A DNA stretch of 64,000 nt from Mobula hypostoma. Lineage: Eukaryota. Each line of letters starts with the position of its first letter. Within the stretch, counting starts at the first letter, position 1. A program made the translations under genes and the position numbers. The stretch spans positions 22,756,001-22,820,000 of the forward strand of contig NC_086097.1 in NCBI RefSeq assembly GCF_963921235.1, read 5' to 3'. Positions 3,095 to 44,179 of the stretch are shown piece by piece. Under the pieces are notes generated by a model. It saw only the letters and a program-made list of their open reading frames with translations, was not told the origin of the DNA and ran no database searches.

Positions 3095-3642
3095 TACACT
3101 CAGTGATACCTAATAAAATGGCCACTGAGCACACATTCATGGCCTTCGGTGTTGTAACCCATCCACTTCAAGGCTCAATGTTTTGTGTGTTCATAGATGC
3201 TTTTCTATGCTCTTCTGCACATCACATGATTATTTGAGTTACAGTTGTCTTCCTGTCAACTTGAACTAGTCTGGCCATTCTCCTCTGACTTCTCTCATTA
3301 GCAAGGTGTTTTCACCCACAGAACTGCCACTCACTGGATGTCTTTTTTGCACCACTTTCTATAAACTCTAGAGCCTGTTGTGTGTGAAAATTCCTGGAGG
3401 TCAACATTTTCTGTATAGAAAAGTGCAAACCACCCCATCTAGCACCAGCAATCATTCCATGATCAAAGTCACTGAGATCACATTTCTTCCGCATTCTGGT
3501 ATTTGGTCTAAACAACATCTGAACCTCATGACCATGTCTGCATGCTTTTATGCATTGAGTTGCTTTCACATGATTAGTTGATTAGATATTTACATTAATG
3601 AACAGGTGTAGAGTTGTACCTAATAACAAGGCCACTGAGTGT
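3095..3642 (-). mobile_element. Non-autonomous Tc1-like element (TIR tacactcagtggccac family) with transposase N-terminal remnant
   Basis: Ends tacactcagtg... / ...gccactgagtgt. The minus strand encodes a degenerate paired-like HTH (KKCDLSDFDHGMIAGARWGG...KTSSEWQFCG). Two more copies occur in the window. Confidence 0.85.
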
Positions 3643-6453
3643 GGTTTGCAGTTTTTTTTCACAATGTGCATCACACAAGATCTTGAAGTTTATCATTAAT
3701 CAGAATTTTCCAATCTCATACGTGAAAGTCTTTCAATTCAAGTGAAACACCATGAATATAACAACCTCATTGGACATTAGAGCTGGTAAGGAAGAATCGG
3801 TTGTAAACTGCCATCACCAGAAATAAGAACTGCTTGAGAAAAAAATTAAAATGCATGTGTTTCAATGGGATAATTAACAGATCATTATCAGAAAATATGA
3901 CTGACTGGAAATGTATTCCGTTTATAAGTAGTAAAGAAAGAAGCATTGGATTTTCCCATTGCAAGGTCACATGAGATACTTAAGGTTGTCCATGCATTTC
4001 ATTTCATTCTGCATCTGTTATGCACAATGGTCAGTGTAATAAGCCAGTTCATCTCAGCCATAAACCACTGTCAGCTTCTGTACAGGATAAATTTCTGATT
4101 GTAAACTCACTTAATACTCTGCTAAGGAATGAAACTGCAAGCAGTTTAAGGCTTATATTTTAGTCTCTTGTACGGTAAAATGACTTGAAGATTTTCATTG
4201 GGAAGGAATTGTCTTTGTGAAGGGGATTTGTCAAGTAACTGACAAAGCATTTCACATCATGAACATTACAGTGTACGTTGTGTGGAAATGCATGGTACCT
4301 GTTATGAATGTTAACACCTTGAAAATAAGGCATAGCTCTTAGGCCATGACGTATCGGCGTAACATGGACGAATGGGATTGGTGTTGATAGATAGAGCAAG
4401 TGGTCTGGAGTGGTGGGCTGAAGGGGCCTTTTTCTCTGCAGTATAACTCTGCGACTGAGTTTTAGTGCCCTTTCCTTTTTAGCCTTTACCTGAATGTGAC
4501 AGAGACAATTTCCGCATTGTTTAACATCACTTAGGAAATTCATTTGTGCTCCTCCAATTGTGATTCACCAAGATCCCTCAATTATCAACAGAATGATGTC
4601 ATTCCCTGAACAATAATCCTTTTGGAACATTGGGAAAGCGGGGGGCGGGGGGGGGGGGGTAGCGTGGATGGGGGTAGTGTGGAGTGAAATGAGACCAAAT
4701 GATTCTGGGAGAGACATCATCTGTATTCTGGTTAAGATAAAGTCTGTGTGGGCATGATAACTTGACTTTTAATTTGAACTGTTTCCTGTTGAATTGCCTT
4801 TAAAGAAGAAAGAAAAACAGCATTCAGACAACATTTTTTATATCTTTGTGTGTGTGTGTGTGTGTATGAAATGGGCTTGCTTTGCTGGTGGTCCTCTTTA
4901 TCCTGTTGTTGCTTGTGTTGCTCTGCTGAACAGTGTGGGTGTTCGTGTATTGGTATAATGTGGCGACACTTGCGGGCTGCCGCCAGCACATCCATAGGTT
5001 GTGTTGGTTGTAAGCACAAATGATGCATTTCATTGTATGTTTAAATGTACGTCATAAATAAATCTGAATTTGAATGTGTATCTGAATAATTAGATGCTAA
5101 AAAAGGAATGTTAAGCTACCCAGTGGGATGGCTGGTTTGCTCCTACACAGAACCAGTATGAAACCAGGATTGTGAAATGGTTACCTCCATGCTATCAATA
5201 TTCTATAATTATGTAATGGGATATCTAGATTTTAATACCACAAAACATTTTTCCCATCCCACCTCAACCACAATAGTTCACAAACCTCCCATTCGCACCT
5301 CCCTGCCACTTGTTAATCTGATTCTGCTTCCATTTCCCTAGCCTAAATCTAGGCTTTTGACCCTCCAGTCTGCTGACATCCCAGATCTCAGATCTTCCAA
5401 CATTCCAAGGCAGCATAATGATGGCAGCATCCATTGTGAAGGACTCTCATCATCCCAGGACATGCCCTCTTCTCATTACTACCATCAGGGAGGAGGTGCT
5501 GGAGTCAGGAGACCCACACTCAACATTTTAAGAACAGCTTCTTTCCCTCTGAGTTTCTGAATGGTCCATGAACATTGCTTTAATATTTTGTGGGCCAAAA
5601 GGCCTGTACTTTATTGATGTGTACTGCTGTATGCTCTGTCTTGATACTGAATTTGTTCTCCTTTTGCTTGATTTATTTTTGTTCACTTTTTATTGTAACT
5701 TACATTTTTTATATTACACTGTACTGCTATTACAAAAGAACAAATTTCACAAAGTACCGTATGTCAGTGATAATAAATCCAATTCCAATTCTGATTCTGA
5801 TTCTGAACACCCCCTCCCCATTTGTTCTAGTCCCTAGAGCCAAGTTTCTACAACAGAAATTGCAATATCCTTTTTATTGCACCTAAAGCCTTGGAGCTGA
5901 AAGCTTGATTTCTTCCTTTCCAGCTATCAAGTCCCAGTTTCTGAAAAAGCTGAGCTGTCTTAATCACTTTGTGATCTTAAGCCCAGATATTGAGTTAAAC
6001 GTTCCTCCTGCGCCACGTTTGGTGCATCAGGTGGCAACTTTTTTTTTTAACATTTGTCCATTTTACGAGGCCAAGTTGCTAGCTCAAAGCTCAACCCAGC
6101 GCGAGCAGAACTTATGCGAGGAGCCAGCTGGAATTGAACCTGCGACCTCTTGCCCCGAAGTCCAGAGCAGATTCCACCACAGTAGCGGCGCAGATAGTTA
6201 TTGTGCGTAACTTTCTCTCCCCAGGCAGTTAATCTGGTCAACCTTTCCAGTTAGCTCCTCCCTCCAACCCTCCTATATTACCGCCGTCACTGCACTGCAG
6301 AGACATTAAACTACTTTTTGCGTTGTAAACATATGCTGGCATTTAGTTGCTGTTTCAGGCAGAGACCCTGCATTATTTTTATGTTATTTCGAGATACAGC
6401 ACAGTATCAGATCCTTCTCGCCCAATGAGCCCACGCTGCCCAATTGCACCCAT

Positions 6454-12072: not shown

Positions 12073-13238
12073 TTGAATTGAATTGATTTTATTTCTTACA
12101 TCCTTCACATTCATGAGAAGTAAGAATCATTATGTTACGTCTCCATCTAAATGTGCCATGTGCAATCATAATAATTTATAATAAATAGAACAGTCAATGT
12201 CATATAGAGTACGCTCAGTCTGATGGCCTGGTGGAAAAGGCTGTTCTGGAGCCTGTTGGTCCTGGCTTTTATACTGCTGTACTGCTCCTTGGATGGTAGC
12301 AGCTGGAATAGATTGTGGTTGGGATGACTTGGATCCCCAGTGACCCTACGGGCCTTTTTTACACACCTGTCCTTGTAAATGTCCCGAATCGTGGGAAGTT
12401 CACAACTACAGATGCGCTGGGCTGTCTGCACCACTCTCTGCAGAGTCCTGCAATTAGGGGAGGTACGGTTCCCAAACCAGGCAGTGATGCAGCCAGTCAG
12501 GATGCTCTCAATTGTGCCCCTGTAGAAAGTTCTTAGGATTTGGGGGCCCATACCAAACTTGCTAAACCGTCTGAGGTGAAAGGCGCTGTTGTGCCTTTTT
12601 CACCACACAGCTGGTGTGTACAGATCATGTGAGGTCCTCAATGATGTGGATGCCGAGGAACTTGAAGCTGTTTACCCTCTCAGTCCCAGATCCATTGATG
12701 TCAATAGCGGTTTGCCCATCTCCATTCCTCCTATAATCCACAACCAGCTCCTTCGTTTTTGCGACATTGAGGGAGAGGTTGTTTTCTTGACACCACTGTG
12801 TCAGAGAGATGACTTCTTCCCTGTAGGCCAGCTCGTTATTGTTTGAGATAAGGCCAATTAATGTAGTGTCATCAGCAAATTTAATTAGCAGATTGGAGCT
12901 GTGGGTGGCGATACAGTCATGGGTATACAGGGAGTAAAGGAGGGGACTCAGAACACAGCCCTGAGGGACTCCTGTATTGAGAGTCAGAAGGTTAGAGGTG
13001 AGGGAGCCTACTCTTACAACCTGCTGGCGATCTGACAAGAAGTCTAGAATCCAGCTGGACAAGGCAGTGTCAAGGCCGAGGTCTCTGAGCTTCTTGTCAA
13101 GCCTGGATGGAACTATGGTGTTGAACGCTGAACTGTAGTCGAAGAACAACATTCTCACATAAGCATCCTTCTTCTCCAGATGTGTAAGACTGGTATGTAG
13201 AGCAGTGGCTACTGCGTCATCTCTCGATCGGTTGTGTT
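12073..13238 (-). mobile_element. 5'-truncated Rex1/Babar-type LINE, reverse transcriptase pseudogene
   Basis: ORFs 12625-13350 and 12147-12551 carry [37 protein letters not shown] and FYRGTIESILTGCITAWFG. There is a premature stop at 12625 and an (ATTCA)n tail. Confidence 0.9.
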
Positions 13239-13887
13239 GCTTGATCAATAAAATTTTGGTTTTGCTGTATGTAATGGATCTTAAATTATAGTCTAATGTT
13301 TGTTCTGGATTGAAGACCCAATTAAAAAAATGCAATTTTATTGCAAACATTTAAAATATTGGTTAGTAGCTATGGAAAAGAAGTATTACTGTTTCAGATT
13401 AAAGGCCTTTCATCAGATCCGTCATTAATTTTTCTCTTTCCACAGCTTCACCTGACTTGCTGTCCATCTCAAGTCTTTTCTGTTTAACATTCAAATCTCC
13501 ATCATGTTAAGTTTTATTTTTAACTAATAATAATTACACTCATTGGTTGTATTATTAGGTACCTCTTCTACCAAACAAAATGGCCACCTGCTGCTTCATG
13601 CTCTTCTGCACACCATTGTAATGTGTGACTATTGACTTGCCATCACCTTCCTGTCAGCTGGAACAAGTCTGGCCAATCTCCTCTGACCTCTCTAATTAAC
13701 AAGGCATTTTTGCCCACATAACAGCTACTCACCAGATTTTTTTTTATTTTTTTGGATTACTGTTCATGAAAATCCCCAGGAGATCAGCTGTTTCTGAGGT
13801 ACTCAAACCACCCTGTCGAGTGCCAACAATCAATCCATTGTCAAGGTCATCTAAATCACATTTGTTCCCCATTCTGATGTTTGGTCT

Positions 13888-14750
13888 TGTTACGTACCCC
13901 GTAACTGGGTTGCCAAACCAGCAGAAATGGATCACTCAGTTGGAGTCTGGAGTACTAGAACTAAGAAAGTTTTATTAAAGAAATAAGCAACACAGTAATT
14001 GAAAGGATAATAAATGCAACAGTTCAGCAATGATAAACACACATGTGCACAGAATTAAGATAACAGGATCAATCAAGCTCTATCGTTGTCTAGGGGTAAA
14101 TGACCAAATTTCAAAGTGACTCAAAGTTCAGTCCAGTTTAGTAGTTCAGTTCGCAGTAATCGTTGCCATGGCGATGGACAACGTGGGGGGAGAGAGTGAG
14201 GGAACAGGAACAACTGATCATTCAGACACGGCTTCACTCACAGACCGGCGAGATGGCTCACAAGTAACTTTTGGGCGGGTCCTTGGTGATGTCACCTGAG
14301 GTCACCGACTGTGACCCCCTCCTCCAGATGCGGTCGATCCTCTGCAGTGAACCCGGCACCCAGACAAGGGCGGACACACACCGGGTTCCCGCTGATCGTA
14401 CCTTTCCACCCTGGCCGTTGTCTGATACTTCTCACCGACTCGTGAGAGGCGTACCGCTTCCAGGGTCTCGTTACCTCGGGTGTCGTGTGTGTCCTGCCTT
14501 AGCGAACCGGTCCCTTTTTATCCCCCTGCTGGGGTATCGTCTGTCCATCACTTCAAACAGTTCAGGGTTCAAAGGGGGAGCCGCTCCAGACAGCTCTCTC
14601 TCCCACGTCCCTTCATTACACATCTCCAGTCGCTGCTCCATTGTTCCTTATCTCTCCTTCCCCTGAGGGCAGGTGGCAGATCACTTGCTGATGTCACTGA
14701 TGCTAATCTAGGCCAGCAAACATCTTAATTTTATGTGTATTCTCGTCACA
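13888..14750 (-). repeat. 3' LTR
   Basis: tgttacgtacccc...tctcgtcaca; about 12 substitutions versus the other LTR by eye; AATAAA on the minus strand near 13972-13977. Confidence 0.95.
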
Positions 14751-14762
14751 CTTCCCCCCTTT
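14751..14762 (-). other. Polypurine tract (AAAGGGGGGAAG)
   Basis: cttccccccttt directly abuts the 3' LTR. Confidence 0.9.
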
Positions 14763-14923
14763 AAGGATTTTTACCGGGAGGTAAAAATTACAAACATGAA
14801 TACATTATTTGATACATACACAAATATACATCTTTATCAGCTATTTGGCTAACACAGCGAGTCTGAAGCTGTCAACACCTTGACAGACAGTCATCGCATT
14901 TTCTGTTCCTTTTACACGTGTTA

Positions 14924-15682
14924 TTAATAATCCCTTAGACCAGGCTCCAACTCAGCAAACTTCATAGTGGCCAAAAACACTGATGAATTGCGACCAATGT
15001 AACCTCTCATTTGGTTTTGTCCCGGACCACAATAACAAGGGTCGTCCCATTCCGACTCAGTTTTCTCTCGCAAGGGCTTAGTAGGAGGGGGACGGGTATT
15101 GACCGCAGAGTTATTGCAAAACTTCCTGCAGTACCCCACCATCTCCAAGAGCCTTCTGAGGGCCCTCTTGTCTGTCGGGGTTGGGAGGTCAGCAATAGCC
15201 TGCACTGTAGCTTGCATCGCTGCCAGCTGCCCCTGTGTCACCTCAATTCCCAGGTAAGTGACCTTCGTGTGGCCGAATTCATTTTTTTCAAGGTTCACTA
15301 TCAAACTGGCTTCAGACAGCCGTATTAAATTGCCAATACACACCTCTGTGTTCATCAGCCCTTTAGTCACTGAATTACTCATTATATATGAATGTTCTTT
15401 ACTGGGCTGCCCTATTGTAACAAACATCACCCAACGTCCCAGTTCTTTGCATTTCCTCGGGACAATCAAACACACGGGTGCGAGTCGTTTAATTACTTCT
15501 TCTAAAGATTCGCTTTGTTCGGGGATTAAGGGAGAGACCTTATCAGTAGACCTGGCCAAAACAATAGCCTTCTCCCATCTGACCGATCCCATCCTAATCT
15601 TTTCAAAATGGTTTTTTCCTCTTATCAGGGGGCCCCTAGCTTCATTGATTTCCACGCTAACACCGACTAGGTTTGTTAGCAT
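14924..15682 (-). pseudogene. pol: Decayed pol remnant (RT palm and thumb fragments, no YxDD)
   Basis: VNLEKNEFGHTKVTYLG...VQAIADLPTPTDKRALRRLLEMVGYCRKFC matches the gypsy RT thumb. The catalytic YIDD position reads VCIGN. An RNase H end-like HVKGTEN follows the stops. Confidence 0.85.
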
Positions 15683-15702
15683 ATCAAAAGCCGGTGACCA
15701 TC

Positions 15703-17853
15703 TCAGTTCGCGTCGGTCATGATCAATAACATTCTTCCCCCGGGCAGCCGGTAAATCTCTTTCATGATTCCACCAACTGTTTCCTCCAGCACCGCAAAAT
15801 GTCCACCGGGGGGTACCTCGTGGGCCATGTTAAAAACCTCATCCCCATAACTTTTTTGCACCACCCCCCATTCCTCATCTGTGGGTACTGTACTTGATTT
15901 CCCTTTTCTCCTTAGCACTTCCTCCTCCCCACAATAGCCTACTAGTTCCCTTGTTAAAGCTGTGTCAGAGAGAGCTGCCTCTGCCAAAACCATCAGCCCC
16001 TCGTCTCGCTCCGGCGTCTGCACAAATTCTTTCCTGGCTACTGCTACGTCTGTCCCAGCTCCCTCACTACCTCTTGTCTCACTACACCCCGTCTCATACA
16101 AGGTTGGCAGAAATGTTTCAGCTAAATTCACTATCGCGGGCCCGTGATGAACCTGTGAGTCCATGGGCGGGGCCTCAATGCTGGCAGGCTGACCTGTCAA
16201 TCTCACGACTGGGAACACGATTCCTCCGGCGATGTCATTACCGAGCAAGACTTCCACGTCTTTCATCGGTAATTCGGACCTCACCCCGATCGTGACTAGT
16301 CCAGAGACCAGGTTGCTCTGTAAGTGTATCTGGTGCAAAGGGACTGACTCTGTCCCTTCCCCAACACCTTTGACCTCTACCTCCCCAGTCTGGGTCTCTG
16401 AGCTAAACTCTAATACACTCTTCAGTATTAGTGACTGACACGCTCCCTTGTCTCTCCAGATCCGCACTGGAACTGGTTTTAACCTCTCCTTCACTGACAC
16501 CAATCCGGCCGAGATAAACCTCTCGCGCCCTTCCTGGACTTTTTCAGACCTGTCCTTCCCTAGCGGTTCGCTTAACAGCTCAATACAGCCATTCAACATT
16601 TCCGCTTTTCCTTTCCCCGTCTCCTTCCTTGGGGCAAAGCACCTGGATGCAAAGTGTCCAACTTTCCCACAATTATAACAGACGACCCCAGGAGCCTTCC
16701 TACCAGACTGCTCCCGGTCTACCTTATCCTTTTCACTAGTCCCCGGCTTACTTTCTGACTTTTCCGGCGGACTCTCCCCTCCGTCCTGACTACCCTTCTG
16801 GTAGCCTTTACTCGGAGCAAACTTCATTTTATGCGTCAACGCATACTCATCCGCTAACTTAGCAGTTGCGGCTAACGTGGCTGCCTCTTTCTCATCGAGG
16901 TAGGGTCTCATACCCTCAGGGACACAACCTTTAAACTGCTCAATCAGGATCAGTTGTAGCAGTCTGTCATAATCCCCCTCTACCCCCTTTGAGGCGCACC
17001 AACGCTCACAATATGTCTGCATCTCACGGGCAAACTCCAAATACGTGCGGTCCCACCGCTTCCTCGCATTCTGGAACCTCTGCCGGTATGCCTCCGGGAC
17101 CAACTCATAAATCCTGAGGATGGCCTCTTTCACCACCTCATACCTCTGGGCATCTTCCGCGGATGAAGCGGAGTAAGCTTGTTGGGCCTTCCCTTTCAGT
17201 ACACTCTGAAGTAAAACAACCCACTTATCCCTCGGCCATTCCTGACTTATAGCCACTTTTTCGAAGTGGAGGAAGTACCGATCCACGCCGGTATCGTCAA
17301 ATGGGGGAACCAGCCTAACCTCCTGGGTCGCCCGGAACCCTCCACCTTGGTTCGGCACGAGCCCCTGCTCAGCCCTTATCTTTAACTTCTCCAGCTCAAA
17401 TTCCCTTTCCCTCTGTTTCCCTCTCTCTTCTCGCTCCCATTGCCTCTCTTTCTCCTCTCTCTCTAACTGTCTGTCCCTCTCTTTCTCTTCTCTCTCCAAC
17501 TGTCTTTCTCTCTCTTGCCTTTCCACCTCTTTCTCTCTCTCCTGCCTTTCTAACTGCTTCTCTTCGTGTTCTAACTGCCGTACCCGGAACTCGTGCTCGA
17601 GTCTCAGTTTTTCAAGCTGTACCTGTACCGTGTCTCCAGCAGGTTTTTCAATAGACACCACCACCAGCTCACCTTGGGGAAACACACCTTTAGATACATA
17701 GTGCTCTACAATAGCTCTGTGTATCTCCTCTCTCCTCATTGTCGACTTCACCTTAGCAAGATTCAACCGTTTGGCCACAGCTATCAATTCCGATTTCCTG
17801 GCATCCTCTAATGCCTCCAAAGTCAGCGCCTTTATAAATTCCTCAGCCTCCAT
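15703..17853 (-). CDS. gag: Gag (coiled coil, SCAN/capsid-like domain, CCHC knuckle) fused to a protease-like domain and a partial integrase Zn-finger, 716 aa
   Basis: Uninterrupted ORF. Motifs: LVPPFDD..VDRYFLHFEKVA, YELVPEAYRQRF, LILIEQF (Gmr1/SCAN-like capsid); CYNCGKVGHFASRC; WRDKGA...LLGND (protease-like); MAHEVPPGGHF (integrase HH). Confidence 0.9.
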   Translation of the reverse strand: MEAEEFIKALTLEALEDARKSELIAVAKRLNLAKVKSTMRREEIHRAIVEHYVSKGVFPQGELVVVSIEKPAGDTVQVQLEKLRLEHEFRVRQLEHEEKQLERQEREKEVERQERERQLEREEKERDRQLEREEKERQWEREERGKQREREFELEKLKIRAEQGLVPNQGGGFRATQEVRLVPPFDDTGVDRYFLHFEKVAISQEWPRDKWVVLLQSVLKGKAQQAYSASSAEDAQRYEVVKEAILRIYELVPEAYRQRFQNARKRWDRTYLEFAREMQTYCERWCASKGVEGDYDRLLQLILIEQFKGCVPEGMRPYLDEKEAATLAATAKLADEYALTHKMKFAPSKGYQKGSQDGGESPPEKSESKPGTSEKDKVDREQSGRKAPGVVCYNCGKVGHFASRCFAPRKETGKGKAEMLNGCIELLSEPLGKDRSEKVQEGRERFISAGLVSVKERLKPVPVRIWRDKGACQSLILKSVLEFSSETQTGEVEVKGVGEGTESVPLHQIHLQSNLVSGLVTIGVRSELPMKDVEVLLGNDIAGGIVFPVVRLTGQPASIEAPPMDSQVHHGPAIVNLAETFLPTLYETGCSETRGSEGAGTDVAVARKEFVQTPERDEGLMVLAEAALSDTALTRELVGYCGEEEVLRRKGKSSTVPTDEEWGVVQKSYGDEVFNMAHEVPPGGHFAVLEETVGGIMKEIYRLPGGRMLLIMTDAN

Positions 17854-17929
17854 TTCTGCTGTTTGTCTTTTCTTTCTTTCAGGAATTTTAACCCAATCAA
17901 TTTACTCCGTCCCAAATTTAGCGTTCAAA

Positions 17930-17947
17930 ATCCCGGACGAGCCCCCA
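17930..17947 (-). other. Primer binding site, tRNA-Pro
   Basis: Minus strand TGGGGGCTCGTCCGGGAT, the canonical 18-nt Pro PBS, 4 nt inside the 5' LTR. Confidence 0.93.
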
Positions 17948-17951
17948 CTTA

Positions 17952-18814
17952 TGTTACGTACCCCGTAACTGGGTTGCCAAGCCAACAGAAATGGATCACT
18001 CAGTTGGAGTCTGGAGTACTAGAACTAAGAAAGTTTTATTAAAGAAATAAGCAACACAGTAATCGAAAAGATAATAAATGCAACAGTTCAGCAATGATAA
18101 ACACACATGTGCACAGAATTAAGATAACAGGATCAATCAAGCTCTATCGTTGTCTAGGGGTAAATGACCAAATTTCAAAGTGACTCAAAGTTCAGTCCAG
18201 TTTAGTAGTTCAGTTCGCAGTAATCGTTGCCATGGCGATGGACAACGTGGGGGGAGAGAGTGAGGGAACAGGAACAACTGATCATTCAGACACGGCTTCA
18301 CTCACAGACCGGCGAGATGGCTCACAAGTAACTTTTGGGCGGGTCCTTGGTGATGTCACCTGAGGTCACCGACTGTGACCCCCTCCTCCAGATGCGGTCG
18401 ATCCTCTGCAGTGAACCCGGCACCCAGGCAAGGGCGGACACACACCGGGTTCCCGCTGATCGTACCTTTCCACCCTGACCGTTGTCTGATACTTCTCACC
18501 GACTCGTGAGAGGCGTGCCGCTTCCAGGGTCTCGTTACCTCGGGTGTCGTGTGTGTCCTGCCTTAGCGAACCGGTCCCTTTTTATCCCCCTGCTGGTGTA
18601 TTGTCTGTCTATCACTTCAAACAGTTCAGGGTTCAAAGGGGGAGCCGCTCCAGACAGCTCTCTCTCCCACGTCCCTTCATTACACATCTCCAGTCGCTGC
18701 TCCATTGTTCCTTATCTCTCCTTCCCCTGAGGGCAGGTGGCAGACCACTTGCTGATGTCACTGATGCTAACCTAGGCCAGCAAACATCTTAATTTTATGT
18801 GTATTCTCGTCACA
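17952..18814 (-). repeat. 5' LTR
   Basis: 863-bp direct repeat of 13888-14750. Confidence 0.95.
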
Positions 18815-19942
18815 GTCTAAACAACTGAACCTCTTGACTATGTCTGCGTACTTTTATACATTAAGTCATGATTTGTTGATTAGATATTTGCATTAAAGAG
18901 CAGCTGTGCAGGAGTACCTAATAAAGTGGCTATTGAGTGTAAGTTTGCCAGTGTAGTCAGTTCACTTGTGATGCTTGGAGTTTTCAAATCTTTGACTTTT
19001 TTTTTTGACTTGACTGCAGTAAATCAGTTCCTGATTAAAGGATTTACTCTGTAATTCAAGGAATTGCTCTTTTCCCTAGTAAAGCACGCCATTTTCAAAA
19101 GATTTTGCACTGCAAAAATGATCTTGTTTGCTGAAGCAAGTCCCAGATATCAAAGAGATTAGATTTGTTATTTATCACAATGGCTTTGCCAGTCACTTAT
19201 TTATTGCAGTCCTGTTTACATGGAATCCAGCAATGCCACTGCAATAGCAGAGTTCCCTTAGAACAAATAATAATAGCAAATTTATTTTGGAAACTATGAA
19301 TTATCTCCATCCATTAGCCTGCATGATGTGAGATTTTCTCAAATGAATGCAAGTCTTTGTACAAACTTAAACAAATATATTCAGGGCACAGATTTTAAAT
19401 TGCTCCTTGATGCCCTTTAAGTATCTAGTTTCTTTGGCAATTTGCAATCTTATATTTCTTTAACCTTTTTTTAAAAAAAAATCAGGCATATCTTTTGTTT
19501 CAGTTGTTTGCTGAATGATCAAATTTAAGCAAAGGCAGCAGTGTGACATGGTAGTTTGGATTTGTGTTTGTAGAAGCTACAGAGAAGCAAAGAATGAATG
19601 TATTCTGCAAAAGACCATATGATATAGGAGCAGAATTAAAAGGTTAATTAAAAGGTTCAGAGGAGCAGGTTAAAAGGCCAGCATAGCATTGTGGGCCAAA
19701 GGGCCCCAATACTGTGCTGTATTGTTCTATGAATCAGAAGGGGCAAGTCACTAAGTTGTTCTTGTTCCACTACATTACAGTACTGTGCAAAATTCTTAGA
19801 TGCGTGTATATATATAAAACATAGAAAACCTACAGCACAATACAGGCCCTTCGGCCCACAAAGTTGTGCCGAACATGTCCCTACCTTAGAAATTATTGGA
19901 CTTCCCCATAGCCCTCTATTTTTCTAAGCTCCATGTACCTAT

Positions 19943-30928: not shown

Positions 30929-31440
30929 CTCTCAGTGGCCACTAAGGTACAGGGGTAGAACCCGGAGTGACCTTCTGATGCTGTAGCCCAGCTGCTTCAA
31001 GGTTCAAAGTGGTTATTGAAGTTACTGTTACTTTCCTGTCAGCTTGAACCAGTGCGGTCATTTTCCTCTGACCTCTCTCATAAACAAGGCATTTTCGCCC
31101 ACAGGCCTGCTGTTCACTGGATTTTTTTTTTTTGTTTTGTTTTGTTTTAGGCACCATTCTCTGTAAACTCTAGAGACTATTGTGCATAAAAATCCCAGGA
31201 GATCAGCAGTTTCTGAGATACACAGACCACCCCATCTGGCACCAACAATCATTCCATGATCAAAATTACTTGGATCACATATCTTCCCCATTCTGATGTT
31301 TGTTCTGAACAACAACTGAACCTCTTGACCATGTTTGCATGCTTTAATGCATTGAGTTGCTGCCACATGATTGGCTAGTTAGATATTTGCATTAACGAGC
31401 AGGAGTACAGGTGTGCCTAATATAGTGGCCACTGAGTGTA
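30929..31440 (-). mobile_element. Non-autonomous Tc1-like element, third copy of the tacactcagtggccac family
   Basis: TIRs ctcagtggccact / agtggccactgagtgta; remnant MGKICDPSNFDHGMIVGARWGGLCISETADLLGFLCTIVSRVYREW. Confidence 0.85.
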
Positions 31441-33355
31441 TGTTTTGCTTTGTGAGAGAGCATGTTGTATTAAAGTGTGCCTTATTGGGGATTTTATTCA
31501 GTTGAGTATTAAAAATTGATCACTGATTCAGATTACATTTGTAGAAATTCCAACTTCTCTGAGAGTATTAGGTTTTGTTTCTCAATAGTGATTTGTAGAT
31601 GACAATTTCAAACTTCATGTAGTTGGTCTTTCAGAGGCTTGTTAAAACTGTTGACAAGCTAGAACATGGAGTTTGATGTCATTGTGACATATCGGTTTAA
31701 GTATCAGAATCCCCAATGTGAAGGTCTGGTTTCAGCTGGGCTGTCAAAGGGGAAGAACTGATTAAACAGAAAACATCCTTCATGATTGAGATGAAGGAAA
31801 AGTAATGGGAGACATGTCAAAACTTGGCCCATCCTCAAGCTCCTGCCTTGGCTAAAGGTTTGTCAAATGTCGTGTGCTAACTTCTGTGATCTGTCAGCTC
31901 AAAATCAGAAACTCTAGAGATCCCCTCCTGCGTGGCTCAGAAAGCGGCAAAGGATTTCAAGCTCTGCCAACTCCATCATAGGCACCAACTTCCCCAGCTG
32001 TGAGGACATCTTCAAAAGGCAGTGCCTCAAAAGGGCGGTATTCAAACTCAGTCAACGCCATCATGGGCACTAACCTCCCCAGCATTGAGGACATCCTCAA
32101 AAGGCAAAGCCTCAGTCATCATTAAGGACCCCCCATCACCCAGGAAGTGCCCTCTTCTCGTTGCGAGCATGAGGGAGAAGGTCCAGGAGCCTGACAACAT
32201 GCGCACACTCAACTTTTTAGGAACAGCTTCTTCCTTTCTGCCAGCAGGTTTGTGAATGGACATTGAACCAATCGTTGAACATTACTTCACTATTTTTTGG
32301 TTCTCTTTTTGAACTACTTAGCACTGCTGCCTCAAAACAACATATTTTACAACATATGTCAGAGATTTTGATGCACAGAGATTGAGGTAGGAATTTAAAC
32401 AAGGCTTTATCTGCTCTCATTGGAGGATGTGAGTGAATTTTGACTTCTTTGAAGAAGAGCGATTCTAATTTGCAAACTGTCCAATATTTATCTCTCAACT
32501 CACAACACTTAAAGCTAAATATACACAGGTTCTGGATATTGAAGTGAGGTGATACATTAATCTGTGAGACCTTGCTGTGTGCAAATCGGTTGTAGTATGT
32601 TTTGTATTACTGCAGTAACTAAATTAAAAAGAAATCACAGTATGTTAAGCATTTTATGAAATATAAATGCTTTCTCTCAATTATAGAACAGTAAGATTGG
32701 GATATTTTACATGAAGTACCATAAAACAAGGTTCTGCCTAAGGTTCTCCCCCCTGTCTTCCTGTCTATAGAAGAGGGGTGTAGAGGTTTTGCTCACCCTG
32801 AAGAACCTACACTCTCCTGATGACCCCAGGTTACATCATTGATGTGCCCCAGCACATCCTAGGATATATCTCAGCATCTCCCCCTCTCTCTCTCTCTGTC
32901 TCCCCCACCATCCTCCCCATCCTCTCTCAGCCTAATTCTATCTGATTGGTCCCAGAGCGGCACCTACAATTCAAGTCATTGTCTTTCATTAAGTGGCTGC
33001 AGTGTAGGGGTGCAGTGCTGCCAGAGCTCACTGGAGCGCTGTTCCGGCAATGCTGTCAAAAAAAAGTCAAAATAAACAAGCAGGGTATTTAAAAGCGGCT
33101 GCATATTAAATAGAGGGAATTTTACGGAAGCAGGGGTTGGGGAGAGAGGGTGATGACTGGTGGGGAAAATACCACCAATAACATAAGGAGATTTGATCGT
33201 TTTTGGTGAAATCCTGGAGCTGTGATTGTTTTTTATTTAGGTATTTGTGAAATTCCTCCTCGCTCGACCCGTTGTCCCAGCATTCCCTGCTGTAGCCTCC
33301 CGCCATTTCACCGATCCTCAGTCTCTCTCCAGCACTCGTTGTTTGAGCACTGTTT

Positions 33356-33768: not shown

Positions 33769-34514
33769 TTAGTGAGTGCAGCCATGCAATACTTCGTCAT
33801 ATTATATGTTTTATTGTACCAGTTATACACTGAAATGTAGTGATAGGCTATAATCTTGCTAATGTCTTAATAATCTATATTTCTGTGGAGCTCTGGAATT
33901 CATATATTTCTTTCATCTTGGTTTTGTGCTTGACATTATAAGAAGCCCTATACATATATATATATATATGTCACACGCAATTTATGTTCCTGCTTATTAC
34001 ATGAATGGGGCAAGGGAGTTGCCCAGTACTGTATATGAAATGAGCAGGTGCACAAATTGGGTGTGACATAGAGTTGAAGTCAGAAGTTTACATGCACCTT
34101 AGCCAAATATATTCAAACTGAGTTTTTCACAATTCCTGACATTTAATCCTAGAAAACATTCCCTGTCTTAGGTCAGTTCAGATCACTAATTTATTTTAAG
34201 AATGTGAAATGTCAGAATAATAGTAGAGAGAATGATTTATTTCAGCTTTTATTTCTTTCATCACTTTCCCAGTGGGTCAGAAGTTTACATACACTTTGTT
34301 AGTATTTGGTAGCGTTGCCTTTAAGTTGTTTAACTTGGGTCAAACGTTTTGGGTAGCCTTCCACAAGCTTCTCACAGTAAGTTGCTGGAATTTTGTTCCA
34401 TTCCTCCAGACAGAACTGGTGTAACTGAGTCAGGTTTGTAGGTCTCCTTGCTCGCACACACTTTTTCAGTTCTGTCCACAAATTTTCTATCGGATTGAGG
34501 TCAGAAAATGATGT

Positions 34515-35482
<968 letters not shown>

Positions 35483-35637
35483 CAAAGTGTATGTAAACTT
35501 CTGACCCACTGGGAAAGTGATGAAAGAAATAAAAGCTGAAATAAATCATTCTCTCTACTATTATTCTGACATTTCAGAGTCTTAAAATAAAGTAGTGATC
35601 CTAACTGACCTAAGACAGGGAATGTTTTCTAGGATTA

Positions 35638-35977
35638 CTTTATACTTTATTGTCGCCAAACAATTGATACTAAAATGTACAATCATCACAGCGATATTTG
35701 ATTCTGCACTTCACGCTCCCTGGAGTACAAATTGATAGTAAATATTAAAAATTTAAATTATAAATCATAAATAGAAAACGGAAAAGGGAAAGTAAGGTAG
35801 TGCAAAAAAACTGAGAGGCAGGTCCGGATATTTGGAGGGTACGGCCCAGATCCGGGTCAGGATCCGTTCAGCAGTCTTATCACAGTTGGGAAGAAGCTGT
35901 TCCTAAATCTGGCCATACGAGTCTTCAAGCTCCTGAGCCTTCTTCTGGAGGGAAGAGGGACGAGAAGTGTGTTGGCT
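35638..35977 (-). mobile_element. Rex1-type LINE 3' tip inserted in the right IR of the SB-like element
   Basis: 6-bp TSD ggatta (35632-35637, 35978-35983); minus strand ends SFFPTVIRLLNGS*; tail aataaagtataaag. Confidence 0.85.
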
Positions 35978-36474
35978 GGATTAAATGTCAGGAGTTGTGA
36001 AAAACTGAGTTTAGATGTATTTGGCTAAGGTGTATGTAAACTTCTGACTTCAACTGTATATATAGAGAGGATATAGGAAATGGCAAGCATTTTGTCAGCT
36101 CCCGCACCTAAAAAGTTAGCACTGCACCCCGGCTGTTATCTTAGAATATCAATGTTTTGAAGCTTTAAACTGCTATTATCAGTACATTTGAAGTCTACTA
36201 ATTTTCATCGGGTTTTGGACAGAAAATGCCAATTTCCATGAACAACACGAAGTATGTTCAGATAATGTCAGAATCAAAATAATGCAGATCTAGGAAATCT
36301 GAATTGATAATGAATTGAAGTTCATTAGACAGTTCTGTGAAGTGAGAATCATAGATTACTCTTCAGAGGCCAGTCACAGGAATGCCAGACACCCACTACT
36401 CCTTTTGTGTAAACAAAAACCTGCCCTGCACCTCTCCTTTAATCTTCCCCCCTCACTTAATAAATTTCCTCTCG

Positions 36475-37210
36475 TACTGATGGTGGTTATATATAGCCCT
36501 CTGAACAGTAGCCAGGATGTGGATATAATTTTCAATGGGAAATAGAAAATGCACGTAATAAAGGCAACGTTACAATAGTAATGGGGGATTTCAATGTGCA
36601 GGTAATTTGGGAAAATCAGGTTAATTGTGGATGCCAAGAGAGGGAATTTGTAGAATGCTTACAAGATGGCTTTTTAGAGCAGTTTGTGGTTGAGTCCACC
36701 AGTGGAAAGGCAATTCTGGATTCAATATTGTGTAATGAACCAGATTTGACTAGGGATCTGACTAGTTTGGAAGAAAGAGTTAATGTGTGAGAGGTGTTTG
36801 ATTGCTCTGGTCTTGTACACGCTATGGTTTAGAAGAATGAGAGGTGATCTTGTTGAAACCTATTCTATATTAAAAGGCCAAATTGGAATGGATATGGAAA
36901 CTCTCGGACCAGAAGGGGCAGCCTTTGATTAGAGGGGTCGTCCATTTAGAATAGAGATGAGGAGGAATTTATTTAGCCAGAGGATGGTGAATCTGTGGAA
37001 TTCTTTGCCATAGGTGACTGTGGAGGCCAAGTCATTGGGTGTATTCAAGGTGGAGGTTGATAAGTTCTTGATTAGTCAGGACATGAAAGACTATGGTGGG
37101 AAGGGAGGACAGTGGGGTAGAGAATGATAATAAATCAGCCATATTGGAATGGCGGAGCAGACTCGATAGGCCGAGTGGCCTAATTCTGCTGCTTTGCCTA
37201 ATGGTGTTAT
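36475..37210 (+). mobile_element. Internally deleted CR1: APE endonuclease fragment joined to the 3' end
   Basis: MGDFNVQVIW...FVECLQDGFLEQFV...ILDSILCNEPD followed directly by the CR1 C-terminus and 3' UTR. Confidence 0.75.
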
Positions 37211-37589
37211 GAATTTATATTGAGGATACTACACTCTGTTGTTCTTATGCTGCCCGTAACAGTGTGTATGTTTGTTTCTGTTTCTCTTTTAATCTGCCTG
37301 TGACTGCATTAGATTTGCAAACCGCCAGCCATCTGTAAGAAATTGGATGGGGATTTGCAAAGGCAAAGCTGTTGTAAGTTGGCTGCGATGTGGGAAGCCT
37401 GCTCAGCTGGCAGTGTGTTATATAAAATTAGTTTACACTGTAGAAGAATAACATGCAAATTGTTCAATCTGGTGACATGATTTGTGTAGCCATTGGGTTG
37501 CTGATCTTTGGCACTCTCTTTCTGAAGACAGAATTTGTTCTTTTTCTTTTCCACACTTAGCACAGTCCTAGATAAGTGCTTTTAAGTTT

Positions 37590-38478
37590 TAGACCATAAG
37601 ACCTTAAGATATAGGAGCAGAATCGGGCCATTTGGCCCATCGAGTCTGCTTCACCATTTCATTTTTGCTAATCCATTATCCTTCTCATCTCCAATCTCCT
37701 ATCTTCCTCCCCTATCCCTTCATGCCCTGACCAATCAAGAATCTATCTATCTCTGCCTTAAATATACCCAGTGATTTGGCCTCCACAGCTGCTTGTGGCA
37801 ACTAATTCCACACATTCACCACTCTCTGGCTAAAGAAATTCCTCCTCATTTCCATTCTAAAAGGATGCTCCTCTATTCTTAACTGTGTCCTCTGGTCTTA
37901 GACTTGCCCTCCGTAGGGAACATCCTTTCCATATCCACTCTGTCAAGGCCTTTCAATATTTGATAAATTTCATTGAGATCACTCCTCATTCTTCTGAATT
38001 CCAATGAGTATATGCCCAGAGCCATCAAATACTCTTAATATGACAAGCCTTTCAATCCCAGATACATTTTCGTGAATCTCCTTTGAACCCTTTCCAATGT
38101 CAGCACATCCTTTCTTAAATAAGAGCCTTTCTTAAATAAAGGGCACAAAACTGCTCACAGTACTCCAACATTACATCTTTCCTTTTATATTCTAGTCAGC
38201 TTGAAATAACTGCTAATATCACATTTGTCTTCCTCACCACCAACTCAACCTGTAAGTTAACCTTTAGGAATCCTACACAATGACTTCCAAGTCCTTTAGC
38301 ACCTCAGGGTTTTGAATTTCCTCTCCATTTAGGAAATAGTCTACTCTTTTATTTCGTCTGCCAAAGTGCATGACTATACACTTCCTGACACGGTATTCCA
38401 TCCGCCACTTCTTTGCCCATTTTCCTAATCTATCTAAGTCCTTCTGTAGCCTCTCTACTTCCTCAAAACTACCTACCC
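37590..38478 (-). mobile_element. Degenerate CR1 LINE 3' fragment
   Basis: LQKDLDRLGKWAKKWRMEY...MHFGRRNK..YFLNGE; (CTTATGGT)-type tail. Confidence 0.85.
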
Positions 38479-41400
38479 TGTGTATTATCTGCAAACAGAA
38501 AGTTTTCCTGTGAAGGTCAAGCCGGTCTGGTTGTTTTCTGATGTGGCACCAAATCATTGAGCAACATAGAAGAAGTATTTCTACCTATTACATTTCCAAT
38601 TTTTTTCAAAGATTATGTATTTATGCTCATTTAGTTCCATAGCTGTACTTCAAACCTTTTTTTTATTTAATTTTTTACTCTGTATTAATTGTTGAATGTT
38701 GTTGAATATCACACCAACGCACCACAGCAACTTCCTAATTCATGTAAATAATAAATATGTGATCCTTGATTTAGTCAGATAACCCTATTCCACCAGCTCT
38801 TTGTCTGTAGCAAAGTAGTTTTCTCTTCATGTATTCAGTTTGAACACAATTATTGAATCTTTTTCTAACACCCTTTCAGACAGTGGATTCTGAATTATAA
38901 GCATTATTGTGCCTATTACCCTTGGTTCTATTGCTAGTCAACTTAAATCAGGGCTCCCTTGTTATGAATCCCACAGCCACTGGAACAATTTTTCTTTTGC
39001 TAGAGTCATCATGATTTTAAACGCCTCTGCCAAATCTCCTCAGCCGTCTCTACTTTGAAGAGACCAGCCTTACCCTATCCACATAATAGACATTGCTCAA
39101 AGCTGAAACCATTGAGAGAGAATGAGACTGTGCTGGAAAATTGAAGGTGGGACCTGATAACCTCTTTTTGTTGACTGTGGTGTCGAAAAATACCGGATCT
39201 AAGCCTAACCTCAAAACTCAAAGTAAATTTATTGTCAAAGTACATATATGTTACTGTATGCTACCTTGAAATTCATTTTCCTGCAGGCATTTATTGGAAA
39301 ATAAAGAATTACGATAGAATTTGTTTAAAAAAAACTATAACTAACAAAGGCTCACAACTATCAACCAATGTGCCACAGAAGACAAATAATGCAGATAATA
39401 AAAAAGTAAACAAATAAGACTGAGAACATGAATTGTAAATTCCTTGAGTCTGTAGATCGTGGAGTTAGTTCAGGGTTTAGAAGTGAGTGAAATTATCCTC
39501 ACTGGTTCAGGAGGCTGTGGGTGCAGGGTAATACGTGTTTCTCAGTCTGATGGTGTGGGACTTAAGGCAGCTATGACTTCTGCCTGATGGTAGTAGCAAG
39601 AAGAGAGCATGCCCTGGATATTATGACCTCTGGGCAAAGCCATCCTTTTCTCTCAAGGTCAAGGTAGACCTCATTCCACAGCATTTGTGAGTTCTGAGCT
39701 GATTGCTTAATGGCTCTGGGTCTCTATTCACTGGAGTTTAGCCAGAGTGTAGTGAATCTGTAGTATTATCACAGATGGCTGTGAAGAGTAGGTCATTGGG
39801 AATGTTTAAAGCAAAGACTGCGAGCTTCTTGTTTAGTGAGGGTTACAGAGAGAAGGCAGGAGAATGGGGCTGAGAGGGAAAATAAATCAGCCATGATGGA
39901 ATGGTGGAGCTGAATTGGCTAATTCTGCTCCTCTGCTGTATGGTCTCATGATGGATGAAGCCACTGTGGGAACTGCAGCCTCTTCAAGAGGTGGAGAATG
40001 AATGAATTCCTTCTGCTATTCATGCTGGACTTGGTATTCTCAATAACACTTTGAGTGCTCCTCTTCTCTGATGTGCAGGCAAGGTCCAGAAATTCCCAGG
40101 AATCGGTGAGGATATTGTACTTTTTCCTGAGGTGTCAAGTACATTTTTTTTTCTGTCTGCCTGAGCATCTCTTCAGAAAGAATGTCCATCTGGGAATGTG
40201 GTGTTGGGCCAGCAAATGAGACAGCGTGCCAAACAGGGCTGAAGGAGTGTTATTAGGCCTCAGTGAGGGGGCTATTGTTCTTTGTCCTTTACTGTATATT
40301 CCCTATACCTTCCTCAGATCAGCTCAAATCTATGCCCGTATGCCATTTCCTCCCTGGGAAAACTCACTAGCTATCCACTTGATCGACAGTAGGCCTCTTA
40401 CCACTGGGGTAGGTGGGTTAACTGGCAGCTGTAGATCGTGTGGGGAAGATAACAAATCTGTGATGAAGGTGGGATTGGTGTAAACAGATGTGGACGCTGC
40501 GTGCCAAGGGTCTGTGTCTCCACCTGCCTATGAGGGATTGCCTGGCTCCTTTAGTTTTAAAGGTTAACTTTATTTGGCAGATGTACATCAAAACATTGAA
40601 ACATGCATTGAAGTGTATCATTTCCGCCGATGACTAGCGGAGTTGAGGATGCACGGAGGGTGCCTGGTGGATGTCACCACAATTCCTGGTCCGTGCATCT
40701 TTGGAATTATGGGAGGAAGCTGGAGCACTGGGAGGAGCCCACACACAATTGTGGAGCGAGCATACCAGACTCCTTGCGGGCAGTGATGGGAATCAAACCC
40801 AAGTTGCTTTGAAGTGTGACACTAGCTGTTCCACTACCATTCCCTCCATATACTCAACCAGGTTCACAATATAAACAGAGGTAATGACAGTCTCCTGGGG
40901 AGGGTGAGTATTTACCTGTCACGTCATGTCACATTTAGCAAGAGGGTGGTGAATCTGTGGAATTCACTGCCACAGGCAGCTATGGAGGCCAAGTCATTTA
41001 AGGCAGAGGCTGATAGATTCTTAATTAGTCAGGGCATGAAGAGATACGGGGAGAAGGCAGGAGGCTGGGGCTGAGAAGGAAATGGATCAGCCATGATGAA
41101 ATGGCAGAGCAGAAGCGATGGCCAAATAGCCTAATTCTGCTCCTTATATTTTGTGGTCTTACCGTATCTTTGCATGTGCAAATTGACCGTTGTGTTTTAC
41201 CGCAGCACTGCACCGAACTCTTTGCCTGTGAGGTACTGTGGGGGGTGAACTGAGGGCTGAGAAGTGATCCTGCATAGATCCAACTTGTGAACCAGAGCCT
41301 CTGAGCACTGGAACAGATAATGACTGCAATCAGCCAGGGATGCTTTCAACGGTACCTCTACACATTGGAGTGTTTGGTGACAACCAGTTTCAAGTTTATT

Positions 41401-43497
41401 TATCAAATGCACTTTGAATAATGGAGTGAAACGCGCCGCTTATGTTAACAACCAACCTTCAAATTGTGCTGGGGATAGCCCGCAGGTGTCACAACACATT
41501 CTGGAGCCAATATCACACATCTACAATGTTTAAGGCAAACTTTGAGAAGGAATTTCTTCAGCCAGAGGGTGGTGAATCTATAGAGCTCTTTGCTGCAGGT
41601 GCCTGTGAAGGCCAAGTCATTGGGCATATTGAAAGTGGAGATTGATCGTTTCTTGATTAGTAAGGGCATCAAGTGTAATGGGGGAAAGGCAGGAGAATGG
41701 GGTTGAGAGGGATAGTAAATCAGCCATGATGGAATTGTGGAGCAGACTCGATGGGCTGAATAGCCTCATTCTGCTCCTATGGTTTATGACCTTATTGTCT
41801 TTTTTTGGGCTGGAAAGGACAATGGTGTTTTGTTTAGCAACACACACACACACAATGGTTGAGGAATTCAGGAGGTCAGGCAGCATCTATGAAAAAAGAG
41901 TAAAGAGCCAACATTACGGGTGGAGACCCTTCATCAGGGCTGAAAGGGAAGGGGGAAGAAGCCAGAAGAAGAAGTTGGGGAGGAGGGGAAGGAGTACCAG
42001 CTAGAAGGAGATACATGAAGCAAGGTGAGGGGAATGGTGGGTGAGTGGGGGAGGGGGGATGAAGTGAGCAGCTGGAAGGTGATAGGTGGAAAATGGCTGA
42101 AGAAGAAGGAATCTGATAGGAATGATGTGACCTATGGGAAAAAGGGAAGGAAGATGGGCACCAGAGGGAGGTATTGGGCAGGTGAGGAGAAGAGAAGGGT
42201 TAAGAGGAGAGCCAGAATGTAAAATGGTGGGGGTGGGGGGGGGGTGGAATTGCGGGAAGTTAGGAAATGGATATTCCTGGTGTTTTGATTATCCTAGCAA
42301 TGAACTGGAAGCTCATGTCTAAAGAGATAGTAGCTTCATTGTGTGTGACTGCATTGTTGGAAGCGTTTTTTTTCCTTCAATTTATTTGGTGATTCTGCAT
42401 CAATGGCCCCCTTTGATGTGATTCTAAGTACCTAGTTCATCAACCAATGTCATCAGAAACAGATCTAATTATTTTTTTCTCTAACGTTTGCACTAAGGAA
42501 GTGGTATTGTCTGTCATTGCAGGAGAACGCAGTGATTTGGAGAGAATATCTACCACCTATCACTTTTCTTCAGTTGGGAATTGACAACTCATGGAGCCTC
42601 GATGATAAATTTTGTACATGACAGCATATTCATTTTTCCAAAATGAATTCCTTGTATTTATAATATATAATTAGCTGCGTTTGCTGGGGTCTAGCATCCT
42701 GGTCATGTTGTATAATGAACAGAAGCTATGGTTAATAAGATTAACCATAACTTTATGGTTAACCAGAGGGCACAACCTCAGAACATCAGGACGACTCTTT
42801 AGGACACGGAGATAAGAAGGAATTTCTTTAGTGGTGAATCCATGGAGCTCGTTGCCACAGATATTGTTCTCTTGCCCTCAGACCCACTAAAAATATGGTT
42901 TTGATTTCAAAAGGAAGTGCCTTAATACACACTCTTTCCATTTTTTTTATATCAGAGTAAATTGAAGGGGAACTTCTTCAGCCAGAGGGTGGTGAGTTTT
43001 TGGAATTCACCACCACAGATGGCTGTGGAGGTCAAGTCATTGGGCATATTTAAAGCAGAAGTTGATAGACTCCTGATTAGTAAGGGCATCAAAGGTTACA
43101 GGAGAAGGCAGGGCAATGGGGATAACAAATCAGCATGATAAAATGGAGGAGCAGAATTGATCAACCAAATTGTTTAATTCTGTTCCTACTGTATGTGTTA
43201 TGACCTTATCGTCTGAATAAATTAATATTCCAGGAAATAACTTCAAGTTGTGTTAGGAGCTAAGTTACTATTTATAGGCTTATTTTGAAAGTTTTTTTTG
43301 AGGACTGAAATTCATATGTTAATGTTTTATGATAGCATTACAGCTCCCTTATCTCTATGGCTAAATCTTCTCAGAGCATCTATACTTCCCTATCTCACAT
43401 TTAATGGTGTTAGGCCATTGGTTGTATTATTTACAAAATTCCTGATTAACTATTGACCTTGTATTAATAGATGGGTTGACTATTAACATGGCAATGT

Positions 43498-43757
43498 TCA
43501 TCATCATCATCATTATGTGTTGTGTCAGTATGACAAGGGCAATCACAATCTTTCCATGACCATGATCAGTGGTCACATAACCAGGACTTGTGATATGCAT
43601 CAGCTGCTCATATGACCATCCACCACCTGGTCCCATGGCTTCACGGGAGAAGGGGTTAAGCAGGTGTAACTCCTTGCCCAAGGGTGACCTGCTGACTAGT
43701 GGAGGGAAGGAGCACCTTACAACTCCTTTGGTTGAAACTTATCTCCACCCCACCACC
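43498..43757 (-). mobile_element. Short non-autonomous non-LTR element (Vingi/RTE-like) with (ATG)n tail
   Basis: (tca)n tail and a G-rich 5' end ggtggggtggaga on the minus strand. Family recognised from memory only; 11395-11590 resembles an internal piece of the same family. Confidence 0.45.
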
Positions 43758-44179
43758 AATGTTGATATTAGGAAAGATTAATAACTAAAAACTGCAAATA
43801 ACAAGTAGTCAATACTACCAAATGCATTGTTGTAATTCTCTCAGACCCAAGGAGAAAACAGCTCTGCTTTAAAAAAAATGCCTCATTACAAACACTTCCT
43901 CTGCTTTTCATCTCAATGTATATTGAGGAGGAATTTCTTCAGTCAGAAGGTGGTGAATCTGTGCAATTTGTTGCCACAGGGGTCTGTGGAGGCTAAGTCA
44001 TTCAGTATATTTAAAGTGGAGATTGATAGGTACATAATTAGTGAGGTATCAAAGATAATGGGGAGAAAGCAAGAGAACGGAGGTGAGGGGGAAAATGAAT
44101 CAGCTATGATTGCATAGCAGTCAGACTAATGGGCCAAATGGCCTAATTCTGATCATTCTAATCTGCTGGAGTTGTCTAC

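Follow-up and report, generated by a model that had tools for sequence, protein, structure and literature searches.

The window analysed here, a 64,000-nt stretch of Mobula hypostoma contig NC_086097.1, contains an LTR element at 13888-18814, on the minus strand, whose interior of 3201 nt lies between two 863-nt LTRs with TG..CA ends (3' LTR, 13888-14750; 5' LTR, 17952-18814; both minus strand). The interior length agrees with the 3.2 kb of the original prediction, which had also estimated by eye that the LTRs differ at about 12 sites, mostly transitions; an ungapped comparison gave exactly 12 differences in 863 positions, 11 transitions and 1 transversion (K2P 0.0141). The 3' LTR carries a single AATAAA, a putative poly(A) signal (13976-13971, minus strand), and adjoins a polypurine tract (PPT; 14751-14762, minus strand). 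A tRNA-Pro type primer binding site (PBS; 17930-17947, minus strand) lies 4 nt after the 5' LTR; read from 17947 to 17930, it is identical to the MLV site as printed in PMC4587795, where that site is termed PBS-Pro. A 4-nt target-site duplication (TSD), GTCT, flanks the element (13884-13887 and 18815-18818), and it is genuine because the rejoined flanks form one dispersed repeat, a paralogue of which at 3249-3649 represents an empty site with GTCT only once. Thus, the TSD, PBS and PPT that had been described as intact were all located. The host repeat itself (13645-13887 and 18815-18950), presumably Tc1-like, is older and dispersed, with paralogues at 3249-3649 and 31030-31445 that are 70-79% identical. 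In one sequenced organism (B), a contig at single-copy depth spans the left flank and stops at 13884, leaving 3 nt before the junction.

A 716-codon ORF (15703-17853, minus strand) comprises, as judged from domain matches and a structure model, Gag, a protease, a linker and the start of an integrase zinc domain. Pfam detected a SCAN-type capsid C-terminal domain at 16828-17097 (minus strand, residues 253-342; PF02023, E 4.7e-12) and a CCHC zinc knuckle of the nucleocapsid at 16639-16683 (minus strand; PF00098, E 9.4e-6). An aspartic protease domain with a retropepsin fold is predicted at 16186-16518 (minus strand, residues 446-556): the confidence of the model depended on alignment depth, with a pLDDT of 45 from 41 rows and 86 from 129 rows, and its top structural matches were the retroviral proteases of FIV, HIV-1 and HTLV (E 5e-4 to 1e-3). 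The ORF is therefore not Gag-only, as the original prediction had implied, given that the protease and the beginning of integrase are also encoded within it. The protease catalytic motif is non-canonical in the window copy and canonical in 13 of the 14 Mobula protein records that contain the motif region (record P0009 was not part of this survey). A charged, E/R/K-rich Gag segment (17443-17563, minus strand) consists of tandem 27-33 nt repeats, and copies of the element vary in length there through in-frame gain or loss of units.

Downstream, a second frame (15829-14924), which the original prediction did not report, is open for 301 codons and encodes a pol remnant of 273 stop-free codons (14924-15744, minus strand) built from pieces joined by frame-keeping deletions. 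These pieces are collinear with P0123, a full-length relative of 1581 residues, and run in the order integrase zinc end, integrase C-terminal/linker, RT start, degenerate YxDD, RT thumb and RNase H piece; the thumb (15322-15035, minus strand) matches Ty3 RT structures (E 1e-4). Frameshift-aware mapping was noisy at 15745-15410, and there short segments were dropped and anchors from P0247 and P0017 used instead. From the integrase zinc motif to the end, 293 residues are present compared with 855 in the full-length form, and the integrase core, already noted as missing, is indeed absent (net -289 codons relative to the full-length protein). The statement that RT lacks YxDD holds in that there is no intact motif, but a degenerate site persists beside the deletions, so that it was not simply deleted. 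The C-terminus of RNase H survives out of frame at 14872-14958 (minus strand), ancestral pol stop included; this remnant matches P0123 residues 1550-1581 and now either belongs to the 3' untranslated region or is read in a different frame. An autonomous LTR retrotransposon was rejected as a description of this element, which has no intact RT (YxDD), RNase H or integrase core.

Because records P0002-P0006 read from Gag straight into the second frame, the window copy appears to carry a frameshift near 15740, within 15737-15745 (minus strand; an indel row was recorded at 15736), and its ORF ends early at 15703. The original prediction had taken the 716 open codons as kept by the element, but the end at codon 716 is a frameshift of this copy and not a family stop; as a candidate family product, 716 codons was rejected, relatives reading on into the pol remnant for up to 966 codons. 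Because the window copy is frameshifted and bears a non-canonical protease motif, the product under selection is not the one that its ORF encodes, and both changes were most likely acquired after insertion.

Deletions and copy number in the Mobula family

The closest protein matches to the ORF came from M. hypostoma; these records share 87-93% identity with it along most of its length. The family ORF spans about 940-970 codons in one frame through the pol remnant. P0004, with 966 residues and belonging to a cluster of 10, has the same end as the window's second frame, and Pfam found only SCAN and CCHC in it; the C-terminal end of the remnant is identical in P0004 and P0243-P0245.

Twenty Mobula records were retrieved, all of them gene models, which are biased to open frames and possibly spliced. 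The junction left by loss of the integrase core occurs in 12 of these (9 from M. hypostoma and 3 from M. birostris), the RT-N junction in 9, the post-YxDD junction in 8, and the RNase H junction together with the family end in 4 (P0004 and P0243-P0245). One record, P0017, is undeleted up to the integrase zinc domain, and the other 7 stop before the integrase-core junction. P0247, from M. birostris, is intermediate: it carries the integrase-core and RT-N deletions, yet keeps 18 residues after YxDD and gives weak Pfam matches to the integrase zinc domain and RT. In a capsid-protease tree of 30 rows, P0017, which is a fragment, adjoins the Mobula family clade (support 93/90). A deletion unique to the window locus was rejected, the integrase-core junction being common to 12 records from two Mobula species. 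Since the same deletions occur in these 12 records, including one intermediate stage, pol decay predates the window insertion, and the originally suggested mobilisation in trans follows, pol having been lost beforehand.

Contigs from three DNA-type sequencing runs, representing three organisms, covered 30 of 30 bins of 13300-17951. In run X1, summed contig depth, which is not copy number, was 2.0-3.2e5 for the remnant, 4.2-4.8e5 for the capsid and 0.9-1.4e6 for the LTR, against 23 for the unique flank; allowing for 31-fold overlap, the lower limit was about 280-450 copies with the remnant and about 1250 LTRs. The family thus has at least hundreds of copies. With 31 nt required on each side, the only junctions bridged by contigs among the 32 pieces listed out of about 80,000 were 15676-15650 and 15385-15374, both in organism B.

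The remnants map on P0123 in the order PR-IN-RT-RNase H, and the protease fold was confirmed by structure prediction. Together with the SCAN capsid and TG..CA LTRs, this anatomy bears out the Gmr1-like affinity that had been suggested; the assignment is drawn from the SCAN capsid, domain order and LTR, PBS, PPT and TSD features, the 30-row capsid-protease tree containing no named Gmr1 reference. The Gmr1 lineage is the source of the vertebrate SCAN domain.

Relative rates, reading frame and age

We compared the window copy and an undeleted or less-deleted ray relative, each against 76 full-length outgroups (75 for the pre-IN region). Identity to the outgroups was similar for the N-terminal capsid (58% for the window copy vs 54% for the ray relative), SCAN (49 vs 52%) and protease (49 vs 48%), whereas the window copy was well below its relative in pre-IN (28 vs 45%), the integrase zinc domain (34 vs 56%) and the RT thumb (46 vs 56%); the surviving pol pieces are, as first noted, strongly diverged. 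Conserved columns followed the same pattern. The window copy keeps 63 of 75 strongly conserved capsid columns and 36 of 44 in the protease, as does P0015 (36/44), compared with 16 of 37 in pre-IN plus the integrase zinc domain, where P0015 and P0017 each keep 31 of 37, and 35 of 50 in the RT thumb, where P0247 keeps 43 of 50; in the RNase H piece it keeps 3 of 8. The remnant differs by 11-24% among deleted subfamilies and by 37-45% from P0247; the capsid and protease of close copies are 93-99% identical. These comparisons indicate that pol was decaying for a long part of the source lineage's history and that capsid and protease were not. The proposed constraint on Gag is thus upheld by protein-level evidence, capsid and protease being conserved as in undeleted ray relatives. 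Synonymous and non-synonymous classes could be assigned at 29 ORF positions among the 40 listed of 346 differences, a few and biased set; the window copy's own listed differences comprised 10 non-synonymous and 5 synonymous changes (a biased set of 15).

On the 3' side of the protease we counted nine net length changes (-12, -7, -5, +1, -289, -7, -128, -18 and -87 codons), despite which both anchors are in one frame in the window DNA. The chance of this is (1/3)^9 for all nine changes, or 1/81 for the four that destroyed enzymes, values to be read with the provisos that compensating shifts are possible within short unaligned stretches and that some changes may predate the loss of autonomy. The 273 remnant codons contain no stop, where 2.5-9.8 would be expected at 0.1-0.3 substitutions per site (probability of none, 0.09 to 0.0001). 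Eleven of the 12 indel rows listed (27 in all) lie outside the ORFs, and the remaining one is at the window copy's break. Over about its last 11 codons the family ORF departs from the ancestral frame, and the old RNase H end is stranded downstream. Taken at the level of sequence, these patterns suggest that the family was probably selected for translation through dead pol. Twelve records extend into the remnant; 8 of them end before the family stop, and two pairs share early ends (P0002/P0006 and P0005/P0014), so frameshifted sources could also have spread.

In the capsid-protease tree, the terminal branch leading to the window copy measures 0.011 substitutions per residue. This is close to the neutral drift of 0.007 per base given by half the LTR distance, and the interior and LTR ages therefore agree. 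If a rate of 1e-9 per year is assumed, the LTR distance corresponds to 7 My; the epaulette-shark mutation rate of 7e-10 per generation (PMC10587355) gives about 10 million generations. The element can be called young, as it was in the original prediction, within its family, but LTR divergence of 1.4% in a slowly mutating group may mean millions of years. Were the LTRs alike through gene conversion, the insertion would be old; the fit of the terminal branch to half the LTR distance makes this highly improbable.

Discussion

In our judgement (probability about 0.72), the window holds a copy, itself in decay, from a Gmr1-like Mobula family that is long-lived, multicopy and semi-autonomous, that is mobilised in trans and in which Gag-protease and an open frame are under selection. 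An ancestral element would first have lost the integrase core and the N-terminal half of RT, followed by more of RT and by RNase H, with replication continuing through several subfamilies. Source copies would make a Gag-protease-remnant polyprotein that builds particles, or co-assembles them with helper Gag-Pol, and processes them. Having lost RT, RNase H and integrase, the element must obtain them in trans, a point that rests on general retrotransposon biology; a helper would supply all three, and these would act on the PBS, PPT and LTR ends, which are intact. Selection on Gag would arise if the protein made from an RNA favours that RNA, and such cis-preferential packaging is plausible. The fusion protein of IAP 1Δ1 is described as aiding retrotransposition in cis (PMC6466679, PMC7411935), although cis preference in LTR elements is presented as debated in PMC13558583. 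Source copies would also be selected for translation almost to the 3' LTR, given that with an early stop a long part of the RNA would become 3' UTR, which might lower RNA stability or packaging; this could explain why the deletions kept the frame. Were translation to end right behind the protease, about 2.2 kb would lie untranslated before the LTR AATAAA, compared with about 0.95 kb for the family stop, and RSV RNAs with premature stops are reported to be packaged less (PMC5035971).

With Gag-protease still under selection, the open remnant could instead be a functional domain, the RT thumb and linker binding helper Pol or RNA and recruiting the enzymes to mixed particles. Of the pieces retained the thumb is the largest, it can still be matched to Ty3 RT structures, and it is 84-89% identical to that of P0243-P0246, compared with 76-83% for the adjacent linker. 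Its conserved columns have nevertheless been steadily lost, from 43/50 in P0247 to 35/50, several of the long copies do not extend to its end, and Pfam finds no pol domain in P0004, all of which makes such a role unlikely. On another reading, no product would be selected at all, and a recently deleted copy would have been amplified passively, its frames open for lack of time. The 93-99% identity of close copies in capsid and protease and the recurrence of some early-ending copies are what such a history would give, but remnants that differ by 11-24% among deleted subfamilies, and by 37-45% from P0247, span a divergence over which pol eroded and capsid and protease did not; passive amplification without selection is already largely refuted, and we give it very little weight.

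The constraint on capsid and protease is real and might also reflect retention by the host, either to restrict a helper or for a developmental role like that of BHIKHARI Gag, spread then being a by-product; the Gag-only zebrafish elements Bik-1 and Bik-2 are reported to be needed for development (PMC12067270). However, copies of the Mobula family are dispersed, LTR-flanked and individually decaying, the window copy is frameshifted with more non-synonymous than synonymous changes in its small biased set, and the constraint fits successive source lineages rather than one fixed locus, so that a host function seems improbable. A domesticated gag gene, in the sense of a fixed low-copy locus, was rejected as a candidate on the basis of the window copy, which is LTR-flanked, multicopy and frameshifted.

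Our preferred reading, a semi-autonomous family mobilised in trans, calls for a helper. No named Mobula protein was found among the best 120 of 544 long matches, and no autonomous partner sharing the LTR or terminal motifs appeared among the proteins searched. When the remnant was used as a query against 1.84 billion protein representatives, only P0247 scored below 1e-30.

The order SCAN-PR-IN-RT-RNase H is given as the hallmark of Gmr1-like elements (bioRxiv 10.1101/2025.03.03.638093). Like the Gmr1-like Ty3/gypsy elements described there, the Mobula family has a SCAN capsid, this domain order and a single ORF, P0123 being the intact form, but it differs from them in having no integrase core, in having lost most of RT and RNase H, and in being non-autonomous. 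Comparable semi-autonomous GAG-Pro elements of wheat are RLG_Sabrina_SA and RLG_WHAM (PMC9744471); PMC13570524 describes TR-GAG and the GAG/PROT families of sugar beet, a plant that, according to the same source, also has families with decayed pol pieces. The Mobula family resembles the plant GAG-Pro elements, as these sources portray them, in its LTRs, family-level Gag-protease, lack of working RT and integrase, and high copy number. It encodes Gag and protease with no RT, IN or RH domain, short pol remnants persisting and the window copy being broken, and it is multicopy with a shared structure (12 records from two species; runs from three organisms). Whereas plant GAG-Pro elements are described as mobilised by partners, mobilisation in trans is deduced here from the missing enzymes; the Mobula family further differs in its vertebrate host, its Gmr1 lineage, the in-frame fusion of its pol remnants and the preservation of a stepwise erosion series. 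Strict TR-GAG membership was rejected: a plant lineage is required, and the closest relatives are Mobula proteins, so the likeness is in mode of working only.

Among vertebrates, the closest cases in the sources considered are BHIKHARI and IAP 1Δ1, and Gag-protease elements are already known in plants. As in mouse IAP 1Δ1, shared internal deletions produce an in-frame Gag-Pol fusion in a non-autonomous yet abundant family. IAP 1Δ1 is, however, described as an ERV of betaretrovirus-like type in which a single 1.9-kb deletion has taken away part of gag, and as needing Gag in trans, whereas the Mobula family has whole Gag and protease and many successive deletions. Action of the fusion in cis is a reported feature of IAP 1Δ1 and would extend to the Mobula family by analogy, for which the preserved frame across the deletions and the lack of stops would be indirect hints. 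Bik-1 and Bik-2 are likewise described as non-autonomous LTR families of a fish that keep Gag and have no working pol, with a partner absent from the reference genome; in contrast to the Mobula family, which is known from sequences alone, they are ERV-derived, have no pol components and have a demonstrated host function. Among the titles and beginnings of abstracts listed from mostly open literature, we found none on a family of this kind; it may already be catalogued in repeat libraries.

A family that has no enzymes but apparently experiences purifying selection on capsid and protease would be direct evidence from genomes that Gag works to the advantage of its own RNA or of an obligate partnership, and would extend plant-type semi-autonomy to the Gmr1 lineage. 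Moreover, the series of undeleted, intermediate and fully eroded forms allows the constraint on each gene to be timed against each deletion. More tentatively, and with rather more doubt than confidence on our part, a vertebrate Ty3/gypsy element might be selectable on reading-frame continuity itself, with about 270 dead-pol codons kept translated through successive deletions because translating the whole RNA would be tied to its stability or its packaging in cis, and with a separate case in stingrays; if true, ray genomes would offer a natural test, in replicate, of cis preference among LTR retrotransposons.

The stingray records (P0019, P0020, P0023, P0024, P0028, P0033 and P0076, from Hypanus, Hemitrygon and one other) belong to a separate Gmr1-like lineage, most of them grouping together (100/99) outside the Mobula family. 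In 6 of these 7 records, the capsid end, nucleocapsid and protease are repeated after Gag-protease, in place of pol; P0024 was unscored, the anchor used for the tail comparison being absent from it. The repeated tails show 29-36% identity (E 1e-15 to 1e-8 in five records, 0.01 in P0020). Possibly, on the pattern of these sequences, this lineage is an independent semi-autonomous family whose open, degenerate tail derives from a decayed duplicate.

Several Mobula gene models bearing host-gene names (P0004, P0010 and P0009; the names are MACC1 isoform X1, phosphatidylserine decarboxylase isoform X1 and trichohyalin-like) consist largely of the element's ORF, and are annotation chimeras or element-driven first exons. 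Caution is warranted, as many 'uncharacterized' or chimeric Mobula gene models, including one named MACC1 isoform X1, are the element.

Other elements in the window

At 34068-36059, two pairs of inverted repeats (34144-34504/35277-35637, 94%; 34068-34149/35978-36059, 91%) enclose a frame whose match to DDE_3 is weak and falls short of the cut-off; this is a probable DNA-transposon remnant. A 476-codon open frame at 56773-58203 (plus strand) matches reverse transcriptase (E 3.7e-34) and belongs to an element that we take to be a LINE of the CR1 type; fragments at 36957-48255 are related to its 3' end. A non-LTR reverse transcriptase fragment lies at 12625-13350 (minus strand; RVT_1, E 2.3e-22), and a putative further fragment of this kind is found at 44363-45067 (plus strand).
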